Origin: a virus
Taxonomy: Duplodnaviria; Heunggongvirae; Uroviricota; Caudoviricetes
Direction: 5' to 3' (one strand)
Length of the DNA: 64,000 nucleotides
Virus record (IMG/VR): IMGVR_UViG_3300015360_001243
Span: 49,999-113,998 of that record
Shown here: piece after piece, positions 54,330 to 54,625 of the stretch
How positions within the stretch are numbered: position 1 is the first letter of the stretch
Layout of the letters: every line of letters begins with the position of its first letter
Program-made: the position numbers and the translations under genes
Notes under the pieces: generated by a model
The model's input: only the letters and a program-made list of their open reading frames with translations
The model's database searches: none
Told to the model about the DNA's origin: nothing

Positions 54330-54401
54330 GCTCTCGTAGCTCAAAGGAAGAGCGGCGATTTCTAAAATCGACGGTTGGGATGTCAGGATTCCCCGAGGGC
54401 G
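54330..54401 (+). tRNA. tRNA-like gene with anticodon loop TTCTAAA (anticodon CTA, amber-reading) and a degenerate T loop (GTCAGGA); possible second suppressor or pseudogene
   Basis: Full cloverleaf geometry. The acceptor stem GCTCTCG/CGAGGGC is 7 bp with one G-U. The D arm is GCTC-AAAGGAA-GAGC. The anticodon stem is 4 bp. The T stem is GGGAT/TTCCC with one mismatch. No CCA is encoded. Confidence 0.35.
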
Positions 54402-54429
54402 CTATATACACTAGTAAGTGAGGTTCATT

Positions 54430-54540
54430 ATGTGGCTACTTGAATTAGTTTTAATTTCCCTTGTTGGTGGTGCGGTTCTTGGAGTTGGTTGGCGTCTTGG
54501 TGAAGATTGGTGGGATAAACACCAAGCAAACAAGCAGTAA
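54430..54540 (+). CDS. possible 36-aa single-pass membrane peptide
   Basis: MWLLELVLISLVGGAVLGVGWRLGEDWWDKHQANKQ, between the two CUA tRNAs. Confidence 0.25.
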   Translation: MWLLELVLISLVGGAVLGVGWRLGEDWWDKHQANKQ

Positions 54541-54551
54541 TCTGCATGGAT

Positions 54552-54625
54552 GGTCCGTTAGCTCAGCCTGGTAGAGCAGAGACCTCTAAATTCTCTGGTC
54601 GTGGGTTCAAATCCCACACGGACCC
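54552..54625 (+). tRNA. suppressor-type tRNA, anticodon CTA (reads UAG), on a tRNA-Lys-like scaffold
   Basis: The acceptor stem GGTCCGT/ACGGACC is a perfect 7 bp. The D arm GCTC-AGCCTGGTA-GAGC and T arm GTGGG-TTCAAAT-CCCAC are canonical. The anticodon stem is GAGAC/TTCTC with loop CTCTAAA. The overall sequence is close to E. coli tRNA-Lys (GGGTCGTTAGCTCAGTTGGTAGAGCAG...). No CCA is encoded. Confidence 0.65.

Follow-up and report, generated by a model that had tools for sequence, protein, structure and literature searches.

Suppressor tRNAs encoded by phages are usually interpreted as a mark of an altered genetic code, and phages in which TAG is recoded have been described among the Lak, crAss-like and other lineages (Ivanova 2014; Al-Shayeb 2020, PMC7162821; Borges et al., doi 10.1101/2021.08.26.457843). 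Single suppressors were also reported in jumbo phages that use the standard code. Thus, RsoM2USA carries one CUA suppressor tRNA, with 1,630 UAG that were called abundant (PMC8504454), and Atu_ph07 carries one UCA suppressor tRNA and has 267 UGA stops (PMC6102473). The closest described case is the Xanthomonas jumbo phage XacN1 (AP018399.1), where two adjacent tRNA-Sup (CUA) genes occupy positions 36047-36122 and 36130-36205; the pair was left unexplained, and no target genes were found (Yoshikawa et al. 2018, PMC5852040). Amber codons end 18 of the 592 XacN1 genes (~3%), and their read-through in silico gave no extra similarity (PMC5852040). The genes for TerL and the major capsid protein (MCP), in the 125-175 kb stretch of XacN1, are annotated as intact standard-code genes. 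The two XacN1 tRNAs are identical at nt 8-65 and differ only in the acceptor stem and discriminator, GGCCCGU..A73 in one and GCUUUCG..G73 in the other. Here we describe a pair of tRNA genes with CUA anticodons, SUP1 and SUP2, in a 64,000-nt stretch of phage DNA (positions 49,999 to 113,998 of the IMG/VR record IMGVR_UViG_3300015360_001243, hereafter the window), which uses the standard code, has few TAG stops, and belongs to a group of phages in which the pair is conserved.

With moderate confidence, we interpret SUP1 and SUP2 as functional amber suppressors with different aminoacylation identities, conserved as a pair within a translation island of huge phages whose genomes have been purged of TAG stops. 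The narrower proposition, that these are working UAG-decoding tRNAs to which the genome has adapted, is well supported.

Two tRNA genes with CUA anticodons

The two genes are located as follows.

54330-54401, + strand: SUP1, candidate class-1 amber-suppressor tRNA (Rfam RF00005, 37.7 bits; family covariation)
54552-54625, + strand: SUP2, candidate class-2 amber-suppressor tRNA (called by ARAGORN with a CUA anticodon; Rfam RF00005, 61.5 bits)

In both genes, the anticodon loop has 7 nt and contains CUA at positions 34-36, preceded by U33 and followed by a purine (position 37), as expected of an amber suppressor. Both have the four tRNA helices with covariation in their families, and both match the full Rfam tRNA model with scores above its gathering threshold of 29 bits. 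The first-pass annotation of the window had recognized these two CUA cloverleaves, and covariance-model scoring upholds its placement of both anticodons. ARAGORN gave a divided answer: over the window it reported 16 tRNAs, including SUP2, and one transfer-messenger RNA (tmRNA), but it made no call at SUP1, which was detected by Rfam only, and among the SUP1 homologues it picks up just one.

The segments of SUP1 are GCUCUCG UA GCUC AAAGGAA GAGC G GCGAU UUCUAAA AUCGA CGGUU in the 5' half and GGGA-U-GUCAGGA-U-UCCC CGAGGGC G in the 3' part. The acceptor stem is thus GCUCUCG/CGAGGGC with discriminator G73, the anticodon loop is UUCUAAA, and the 7-nt D loop, AAAGGAA, contains A20. Because the single-sequence folding energy of SUP1 is unremarkable (z = -1.26), the evidence for its reality is comparative. 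Homologues were recovered by look-ups of neighboring proteins and by two pattern scans of IMG/VR and metagenomes, which yielded a family of 26 distinct sequences from many samples rather than assembly copies of one sequence. In this family, 96.3% of the cells of the cloverleaf are paired and 16 of the 20 pairs have changed on both sides; none of 500 shuffles was as good, and slid 3' partners pair in at most 50%. As to the anticodon loop, 24 members have CUCUAAA and two have UUCUAAA, CUA being invariant, and in both the SUP1 and SUP2 families U33, A37, and A38 accompany the invariant C34-U35-A36.

The T arm of SUP1 had been considered degenerate in its loop. Instead of being decayed, it is a conserved alternative design. 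Its stem has 4 bp, with compensatory changes in the family, and is followed by U53/U61 in 26 of 26 members and by a loop G-K-C-R-G-R-A, in which nucleotides 54 and 58 are G/G in 25 members and C/A in the remaining one. A canonical tRNA would show G53-C61, T54-A58, Psi55, and C56 and, on the side of the D loop, G18 and G19; SUP1 departs from this arrangement but keeps C56 and G19. Nucleotide 18 of the D loop and nucleotide 55 of the T loop covary perfectly (G/U in 20 members, A/G in six), as would be predicted for an L-shaped tRNA in which the D and T loops are in contact.

A covariance model of the family gives 85.5 bits for the window SUP1 and 83-96 bits for the family, while every other tRNA scores at most 50 bits. 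The best ordinary matches to this model are tRNA-Arg genes (37-46 bits), tRNA-Arg is also the top non-suppressor BLAST match, and the D loop AAAGGAA is common to SUP1 and the tRNA-Arg(CCU) of the clade, which is the ordinary tRNA most like SUP1 in the related phages. A scan of 185,579 bacterial and archaeal species, represented by one genome each, returned six chance matches to the SUP1 pattern, none of which folds, and no family member; a BLAST search against E. coli gave no match. Judged by these comparisons, the SUP1 scaffold looks Arg-like, has a conserved alternative T arm, and appears to be restricted to phages among the genomes scanned. Because this type of T arm is missed by ARAGORN, suppressor tRNAs of phages are probably under-counted.

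Two unusual genes were observed beside or among the SUP1 homologues (related loci are denoted by L numbers). Directly upstream of the homologue in L006, at 2209-2330, there is a tRNA-Lys(UUU)-like gene whose D loop carries an insert of ~48 nt and whose T loop, UGCAAAU, is odd; this gene may be intron-containing or split. L152 has a lone CUA tRNA (3697-3769, minus strand) in which a SUP1-like D arm and a GUCAGUA T loop occur together with A73, a GG acceptor, and a T stem of 5 bp (GUGGG/CCCAC). This hybrid hints that the two classes of CUA tRNAs share an ancestor.

The second gene, SUP2, is composed of GGUCCGU UA GCUC AGCCUGGUA GAGC A GAGAC CUCUAAA UUCUC UGGUC in the 5' half and GUGGG UUCAAAU CCCAC ACGGACC C in the 3' part. 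Its first-pass description as a textbook cloverleaf holds in part: the full Rfam match, the canonical T arm (GUGGG-UUCAAAU-CCCAC), and the GG of the D loop agree with it, but the C31/U39 mismatch, the discriminator C73, and the absence of an encoded CCA do not. The folding energy is low (z = -3.67), and the minimum-energy fold gives a 9-nt anticodon loop; pair 31:39 is open in 11 of the 16 family members, and the loop may in effect be 9 nt long. This family, which consists of 15 homologues from the clade and one of the XacN1 tRNAs (Sup-A), is paired at 94.3%, with 14 of 21 pairs compensatory and CUA invariant. The discriminator is C in eight class-2 tRNAs, A in four, and U in three, and A again in sister lineages; it is never G.

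The resemblance of SUP2 to tRNA-Lys noticed in the first pass was borne out by database matches: the best is the XacN1 tRNA-Sup (82.7% identity over 99% of the length), followed by many phage tRNA-Lys genes, and in the E. coli collection tRNA-Lys is the best, if weak, match. From the identity set of tRNA-Lys (A73 and U34-U35-U36), SUP2, with its C73 and CUA, retains U35 alone. SUP2 is a tRNA with a Lys-like body, not a tRNA-Lys. An exact-match search for SUP2 in IMG/VR and a scan with neighboring proteins returned nothing. In L150, a decayed 65-nt copy of SUP2 (394-458), shortened in the anticodon and variable regions, is located beside an intact SUP1 homologue; the second member of the pair can thus be lost.

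Both genes are directly followed by CTA (54402-54404 and 54626-54628), not by the CCA that is encoded by all 15 other tRNAs of the window. This suggests that the CUA tRNAs use a separate route of 3' maturation that needs a CCA-adding enzyme. In the related phages, the two CUA genes of one genome often have matching trailers (CTA/CTA, CAA/CAA, or CCA/CCA). Taken together, the two families are structured tRNAs under purifying selection with an invariant CUA.

Stop-codon usage and the genetic code

Under the standard code, open reading frames (ORFs) of the window end in 57 TAA, 37 TGA, and 3 TAG codons (TAG in three of 97-100 ORFs); the TAG-terminated genes are at 8619-9233, 34351-34833, and 58030-58728. 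ORF calling was crude, but the controls were run with the identical caller: in 45 unrelated viral loci of 35-46% GC, TAG accounts for 97 of 539 stops (18%; Fisher p = 3e-5 versus the window). Low usage extends to the related phages, with 24 of 399 stops in close loci, 51 of 1064 (4.8%) in 37 further loci, and none of 119 in five more. Outside the reading frame TAG is not avoided, constituting 20% of the off-frame stop triplets of the window. The depletion of TAG stops, which is 6-fold in the window and clade-wide, gives only indirect support to insertion of an amino acid at UAG in vivo. L004, a syntenic relative that lacks CUA tRNAs, has TAG at 5 of 31 stops, a single small sample that is suggestive of a tie between the suppressors and the purge.

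The gene models of the window agree with the earlier remark that its genes end normally under the standard code. Code 11 gave the best coverage (0.902 versus 0.882) and the best strand coherence, and recoding inside the window was rejected, as reading TAG, TGA, or TAA as sense lowers both. In-frame TAG codons were sought by translating TAG as X and comparing homology with the called genes; the first run was dominated by off-frame shadow ORFs, and the repeats were done against called genes. None was found in conserved genes of the window, 30 close loci, and 37 further loci (~0.7 Mb). The few candidates all sit upstream of true start codons, and the intact genes of the relatives include those for a 1172-aa DNA polymerase, SbcCD, topoisomerase I, and ClpP. 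In every region covered, the standard code is followed by this phage and by its relatives. The link from these suppressors to recoding considered in the first-pass annotation is so far not supported by these regions, and the pair is not evidence of an already recoded genome.

The regions covered contain no structural or late genes of the clade. A search with the XacN1 MCP returned only XacN1-like proteins, and tblastn of XacN1 TerL, MCP, and neighboring proteins against 2.9 Mb of related and other loci matched only unrelated contigs. A ~50 kb walk rightward from the site in IMGVR_UViG_3300050821_010764, made in four steps, met no structural genes; it passed genes for ClpP, an FtsK-like protein, topoisomerase I, ribosomal protein S21, a methyltransferase, peptide deformylase, SbcCD, a deoxynucleoside monophosphate kinase, and DNA polymerase. 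Neither release factor 2 nor a dedicated aminoacyl-tRNA synthetase was found among the neighbors within ~10 kb or the ~45 proteins scanned.

Read-through domains behind the TAG stops were considered and rejected: the extensions following TAG in the window are 16, 7, and 8 codons long, and the clade median of 7.5 codons is no longer than that after TAA (8) or TGA (7.5). One TAG-terminated ORF of L006 (540-905) is in frame with the next gene, an arrangement that does not occur in the window.

Conservation of the pair

The relatives of the phage are uncultured contigs of up to ~480 kb, and some of the related loci are redundant copies of one contig. Contigs with the pair include IMGVR_UViG_3300028558_000791 (481 kb), 3300043177_000122 (359 kb), 3300037501_000111 (340 kb), 3300050821_010764 (145 kb), and Ga0326728_10000194 (252 kb), while in the short stretch covered of SXGS01390712.1 (422 kb) a SUP1 homologue alone was observed. 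Because the loci found with the SUP1 pattern are biased, the samples obtained with a neighboring protein and with initiation factor 3 (IF3) carry more weight. Four loci were found via a neighboring protein; one has both CUA tRNAs, two have only SUP1, and one has none (SUP1 stands alone in L003 and L005, and L004 has no CUA tRNA). In IMG/VR, nine loci encode an IF3 sharing at least 70% identity with that of the relative L165, and all nine have two CUA tRNAs 1.5-3 kb upstream of the IF3 gene, while the ten loci with a more distant IF3 have none.

In six of the nine IF3-found loci, the first CUA tRNA has a scaffold other than that of SUP1. Two such scaffolds can be distinguished, (i) type X, CCGCUCU..G73 with C1-G72 (L206:7817-7890, L209:7176-7249, and L210:8142-8215), and (ii) type Y, UCUCGCA..G73 with U1-A72 (L208:7146-7219 and L212:8016-8089). 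Both have canonical T loops and encoded CCA. The second tRNA beside them is Lys-like, GCGCCGU..A73 in L206 and L208-L211 and GCGCCGA..A73 in L212. Counted by distinct loci, a second CUA tRNA accompanies SUP1 in 16, type X in three, and type Y in two. The discriminator is G in 21 of the 26 SUP1-family members, and types X and Y and the second XacN1 tRNA, Sup-B, all have G73. The class-1 scaffold has been replaced at least three times with retention of CUA and G73. Since the IF3-found loci, the counts of distinct loci, and XacN1 all show the same pairing, a G73-class suppressor beside a Lys-like suppressor without G73 can be regarded as a conserved unit, and selection probably keeps two aminoacylation identities. 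The swapping of G73 scaffolds beside a Lys-like partner suggests a demand for two identities at a single stop codon, an unusual situation.

The surroundings of the pair are conserved as well. Many contigs share the order Thg1, tRNA-Thr cluster, tmRNA, PTH2, SUP1, SUP2, two small genes, IF3, tRNA-Arg(CCU), and the layout of the window recurs in L006, L017/L213, L085/L145, L098/L205, L130, L132, L133, L142, L147, L166, L207, and others. In the window, these markers are the following.

46944-47735, + strand: Thg1-like tRNA-His guanylyltransferase (Pfam PF04446, E = 6.4e-19)
48292-48754, + strand: four tRNA-Thr genes (UGU, GGU, AGU, CGU; ARAGORN), upstream syntenic marker
49181-49532, + strand: phage tmRNA with the tag ANDNAFAPLALAA (ARAGORN; Rfam RF00023, 123.6 bits)
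52824-53135, + strand: PTH2-type peptidyl-tRNA hydrolase (Pfam PF01981, E = 9.8e-8), ~1.2 kb upstream of SUP1
56047-56583, + strand: IF-3 homologue (Pfam IF3_N, 3.1e-30; IF3_C, 1.3e-26), right-hand syntenic marker
56592-56669, + strand: tRNA-Arg(CCU), directly after IF3 (ARAGORN)

The pair of the window lies between the tmRNA and PTH2 genes on one side and the IF3 and tRNA-Arg(CCU) genes on the other, and its first member has G73, while the second is Lys-like without G73. The Thg1-like gene forms the left end of this conserved translation island, and its homologues, 55-78% identical, occupy the matching relative position in eight related loci. The tRNA-Thr cluster recurs in the relatives, the tmRNA is found at the equivalent place, and the PTH2 gene adjoins the site in L001, L003, L006, and L007. 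A role of the tmRNA as a functional partner of the CUA pair, via rescue of stalled ribosomes, is possible.

Suppressor tRNAs were also observed in distant huge phages: a UUA (ochre-reading) tRNA with the acceptor GCGCCUG..G73 (L199:15367-15442) and a CUA tRNA with GCGCCCG..A73 (L198:13701-13777). Their T loops, UUAGAGU and UUAAAAU, respectively, lack C56, and an Arg-type acceptor thus recurs among phage suppressors of different stop codons.

Predicted aminoacylation identities

Identity elements compiled for bacterial tRNAs (PMC9976931) allow us to predict the specificities of the pair. Lys identity depends on A73 and U34-U36; Lys also tends to be the residue inserted by amber suppressors with U35, and a change to G73 makes a Lys suppressor insert Gln in part. 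Gln identity involves G73, U1-A72, G2-C71, G3-C70, U35, and A37. For Arg, A20 is the main determinant, together with A/G73, C35, and U/G36, and for His the determinants are G-1 and C73 (PMC9976931). Having U35 and a Lys-like body, SUP2 is most simply, and most likely, a substrate of lysyl-tRNA synthetase (LysRS). SUP1 is most likely charged by glutaminyl- or arginyl-tRNA synthetase (GlnRS or ArgRS), in view of its G73, U35/A37, and A20; compared with the Arg set, A20 and G73 are present and C35 is replaced by U35, and compared with the Gln set, G73, U35, and A37 are present but none of the first three acceptor pairs is the expected one. Type Y, with U1-A72 and G73, leans to Gln.

Other identities were considered. 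For SUP2, a His identity acquired through C73 and the Thg1-like enzyme was rejected, as no G precedes the gene; the presence of Thg1 in relatives whatever the SUP2 discriminator (C, A, or U) also weakens this route, although for the C73 variants it is conceivable as a speculative option with the co-encoded enzyme. Thr identity of SUP1, suggested by G1-C72 and C2-G71, was rejected since G35/U36 are missing and the tRNA-Thr genes of the clade have U73.

The tRNA-Pyl label given by ARAGORN reflects the CUA anticodon only, and this assignment was rejected for both genes on architecture. In a tRNA-Pyl, the anticodon stem has 6 bp, the variable loop 3 nt, and the D loop ~5 nt, a single nucleotide separates the acceptor stem from the D stem, and the genome contains pylS and pylBCD. 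SUP1 and SUP2 have UA at positions 8-9, an anticodon stem of 5 bp or weaker, variable loops of 4-5 nt, and D loops of 7 or 9 nt, and a non-exhaustive scan of the window proteins found no pyl-like gene.

Genomic neighborhood

The window is a part of an uncultured huge phage genome. It has 91 of 97 ORFs on one strand and a coding density of 0.90. Among 50,697 deposited phage records, there was no DNA match to the window and no match to the neighboring proteins; Thg1 homologues of cultured phages are about 30% identical at best. Other genes near the pair, one of them in the spacer between the two CUA tRNAs, are as follows.

49894-50574: glucosaminidase, an intact cell-wall hydrolase gene
50618-51115: M23 peptidase, an intact cell-wall hydrolase gene
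54431-54540, + strand: hydrophobic 36-codon mini-ORF, MWLLELVLISLVGGAVLGVGWRLGEDWWDKHQANKQ, within the listed ORF 54418-54540

The spacer varies from 10 nt to ~1.4 kb in the relatives. Therefore, the mini-ORF is not conserved and is probably not a part of the CUA-tRNA module. A scan for promoters and terminators around the CUA tRNAs yielded enrichment no greater than in shuffles. In the relatives, the translation island additionally contains genes for S21 (L225:18964-19341), peptide deformylase (L252:13727-14263), and, downstream, two ClpP proteins.

The window also encodes an RNA ligase, a PARP-like protein, adenylosuccinate synthetase, and an NAD-dependent DNA ligase. The 496-aa PARP-like protein (3279-4769) combines WGR, PARP regulatory, and PARP catalytic domains in an architecture resembling that of poly(ADP-ribose) polymerases. 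The tRNA genes at 11179-14123 and 48292-48754 are grouped by amino acid and form near-complete isoacceptor sets (four Leu, two Glu, four Arg, and four Thr). One of them, tRNA-Leu(CAG) at 11880-11956, is only 77 nt long and lacks the long variable arm expected of a bacterial tRNA-Leu.

Possible function of the pair and alternative explanations

Retained in dozens of related giant phages, which almost never terminate genes of their own with UAG, the pair looks like a working UAG-reading device. A possible scenario is that the CUA tRNAs are transcribed with the surrounding + strand genes, mature via a CCA-less 3' pathway requiring a CCA-adding enzyme, and are charged by host synthetases, SUP2 by LysRS and SUP1 by GlnRS or ArgRS. 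Once charged, the suppressors would compete with release factor 1 for UAG codons during infection. As the phage genes end in TAA or TGA, the cost of read-through would fall on UAG-ending mRNAs of the host and of co-infecting phages, and the module could serve as a device for takeover or competition. Equally, it may represent the predicted "suppressor acquired, stop purged" state that precedes recoding, in a stable and long-lived form. Takeover fits the nature of the nearby genes: the window encodes tmRNA, PTH2, and IF3, and its relatives encode S21, peptide deformylase, and ClpP.

Several considerations weigh against the pair being two functional suppressors of different identity. The functional status of every member of the two families is read from sequence comparison. 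SUP2 of the window has C73 instead of the A73 of tRNA-Lys, and SUP1 lacks C35, expected for Arg, as well as U1-A72/G2-C71, expected for Gln. The U53/U61 and G54/G58 T arm of SUP1, like the unpaired nucleotides 31 and 39 of SUP2, could make EF-Tu binding or use by the ribosome less efficient. Low usage of TAG could stem partly from ancestry or host adaptation rather than from the suppressors, and the benefit from host-directed read-through is a conjecture.

A bolder variant, possible though in our view doubtful, is that UAG is deliberately made ambiguous: suppressors of the G73 class (Gln or Arg) and of the Lys-like class (Lys, or for C73 variants maybe His via Thg1) would act in a TAG-purged phage as a weapon against the host or rival phages, with SUP1 representing a new phage-specific class of tRNAs. 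The main rival of the favored interpretation, which we regard as unlikely, is a code switch in which the suppressors translate late genes (structural or lysis) with in-frame TAG codons outside the window, as in the crAss-like and Lak phages. CUA tRNAs of phages are strongly tied to TAG recoding, genes for the code change are themselves written in the standard code, the proposed route to recoding starts with depletion of TAG stops followed by acquisition of a suppressor, and the structural module of this clade lies outside the stretches covered. However, conserved genes have no in-frame TAG in the 64-kb window and ~0.7 Mb of related sequence, nor do the genes in the ~50 kb walked rightward in one relative, including those for DNA polymerase (1172 aa), SbcC (742 aa), and topoisomerase (595 aa), and the cell-wall hydrolase genes of the window, for the glucosaminidase and the M23 peptidase, are intact. 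XacN1, which is complete and has an analogous pair, has TerL and MCP genes annotated as intact in the standard code, which is not decisive for this clade, and read-through in silico at its 18 amber-ended genes of 592 added no similarity. A more passive role, distinctly unlikely in our assessment, is that of an evolutionary intermediate or buffer, in which inefficient suppression rescues amber mutations in a very large genome and is tolerated as TAG stops are already rare. Such a stage is included in the model of Borges et al., TAG stops are indeed rare across the clade, and some lineages have lost or degraded members (decayed SUP2 in L150, SUP1 only in L003 and L005, none in L004). This explanation is disfavored because the maintenance of two different suppressors at one site across deep divergence, the exchange of class-1 scaffolds at least three times with G73 and CUA kept, and the acceptor-stem differences on otherwise identical bodies in XacN1 all point to selection for a specific dual function.

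The remaining alternatives have less in their favor. C-terminal extension of a few TAG-ended phage proteins by programmed read-through is improbable: three genes of the window do end in TAG, and in L006 such an ORF is in frame with the next gene, but the extensions are short, the same as after TAA or TGA, the L006 arrangement is not shared by the window, and past the 18 amber stops of XacN1 its authors saw no extra similarity. The CUA might also be incidental, the RNAs acting as decoys, antidotes, or sensors against tRNA-targeting defenses or as primers or regulators. Phage tRNAs can counter tRNA-cleaving defenses (PARIS, anticodon nucleases), tRNA-Lys, which the SUP2 body resembles, is a classic nuclease target, and the T arm of SUP1 is not canonical. 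We consider this very improbable, since no part of either family is more conserved than the YUCUAAA loop with CUA, an anticodon that occurs in no cellular tRNA and would be superfluous in a decoy or replacement, and the depletion of TAG stops would be left unexplained. Finally, the silence of ARAGORN on SUP1, its folding z of -1.26, and the lack of encoded CCA in both genes, unlike the 15 other tRNAs, would suit tRNA pseudogenes or chance cloverleaves. That one or both genes are of this kind is extremely improbable given the compensatory changes, which affect each of the four helices in either family, the conserved tertiary covariation, the conserved synteny, and the separation of the SUP1 family (83-96 bits) from all other tRNAs (at most 50 bits) by its own model.

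Comparison with known systems

The pair shares many features with that of XacN1. In both cases, neighboring CUA tRNAs are found in a tRNA-rich jumbo phage that uses the standard code and encodes tmRNA, Thg1, and PTH. The XacN1 gene GGCCCGU..A73 is SUP2-like, with a Lys-like body and a non-G discriminator, and the acceptor of the other gene, GCUUUCG..G73, matches that of SUP1 at six of seven positions; the SUP1 model gives it 42.8 bits, as against 28.4 bits for the SUP2-like gene. However, the two XacN1 genes share a canonical body, in which the D and T loops are ordinary, and encode CCA, whereas the G73 member of the window is built on a separate scaffold, Arg-like in the D arm and atypical in the T arm. 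XacN1 has its two genes in the opposite order, and kinship of the phages is only distant, with Thg1 ~33% identical and DNA similarity absent. A permuted-type tmRNA is located ~1 kb downstream of the two CUA tRNAs of XacN1 (L125:5155-5575). Because the XacN1 tmRNA also adjoins the pair, co-location of suppressor tRNAs and tmRNA is common to two distant groups of jumbo phages.

Another system for comparison is the TAG-recoded phages. They likewise have a phage CUA tRNA in the part of the genome written in the standard code, rare use of TAG as a stop, and co-encoded translation factors. They differ in having many in-frame TAG codons and a low coding density under code 11, whereas the density of the window is 0.90 and no such codons were seen. 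In those phages, moreover, a single assignment of TAG to Gln was inferred, while the window keeps two CUA tRNAs with different types of acceptors. Like RsoM2USA and Atu_ph07, the window combines a suppressor tRNA with the standard code in a tRNA-rich jumbo phage, but those phages have a single gene and depletion of the cognate stop was not reported for them, as opposed to the conserved pair and purged stop observed here.

An engineered analogy is provided by the laboratory amber suppressors made from E. coli tRNAs, tRNA-Lys(CUA), tRNA-Arg(CUA), and supE, in which CUA is likewise placed on Lys-like and Arg-like scaffolds. In these constructs, U35 attracts LysRS and GlnRS, and A73 favors Lys (PMC9976931). 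The tRNAs of the window are natural, encoded by a phage, and conserved as a pair; SUP2 has C73, the T arm of SUP1 is absent from those constructs, and charging is predicted here. With tRNA-Pyl, rejected above, the two tRNAs share the CUA anticodon in a loop of the CUCUAAA type, and SUP1 also deviates from the T54-Psi55-C56 consensus. Natural CUA scaffolds of this kind may serve as orthogonal tRNAs in engineering, and XacN1, being culturable, offers an experimental system for questions about suppressor pairs.

In summary, suppressor tRNAs of phages, single suppressors of standard-code jumbo phages, and the unexplained pair of XacN1 were known before. New here are (i) the occurrence of the pair as a syntenic conserved module of a large uncultured clade, (ii) the split between G73 and non-G73 members held through repeated scaffold replacement, (iii) the SUP1 scaffold, whose T arm is non-canonical yet covaries and which a standard tRNA finder misses, and (iv) the clade-wide purge of TAG stops, with its extent given in numbers.

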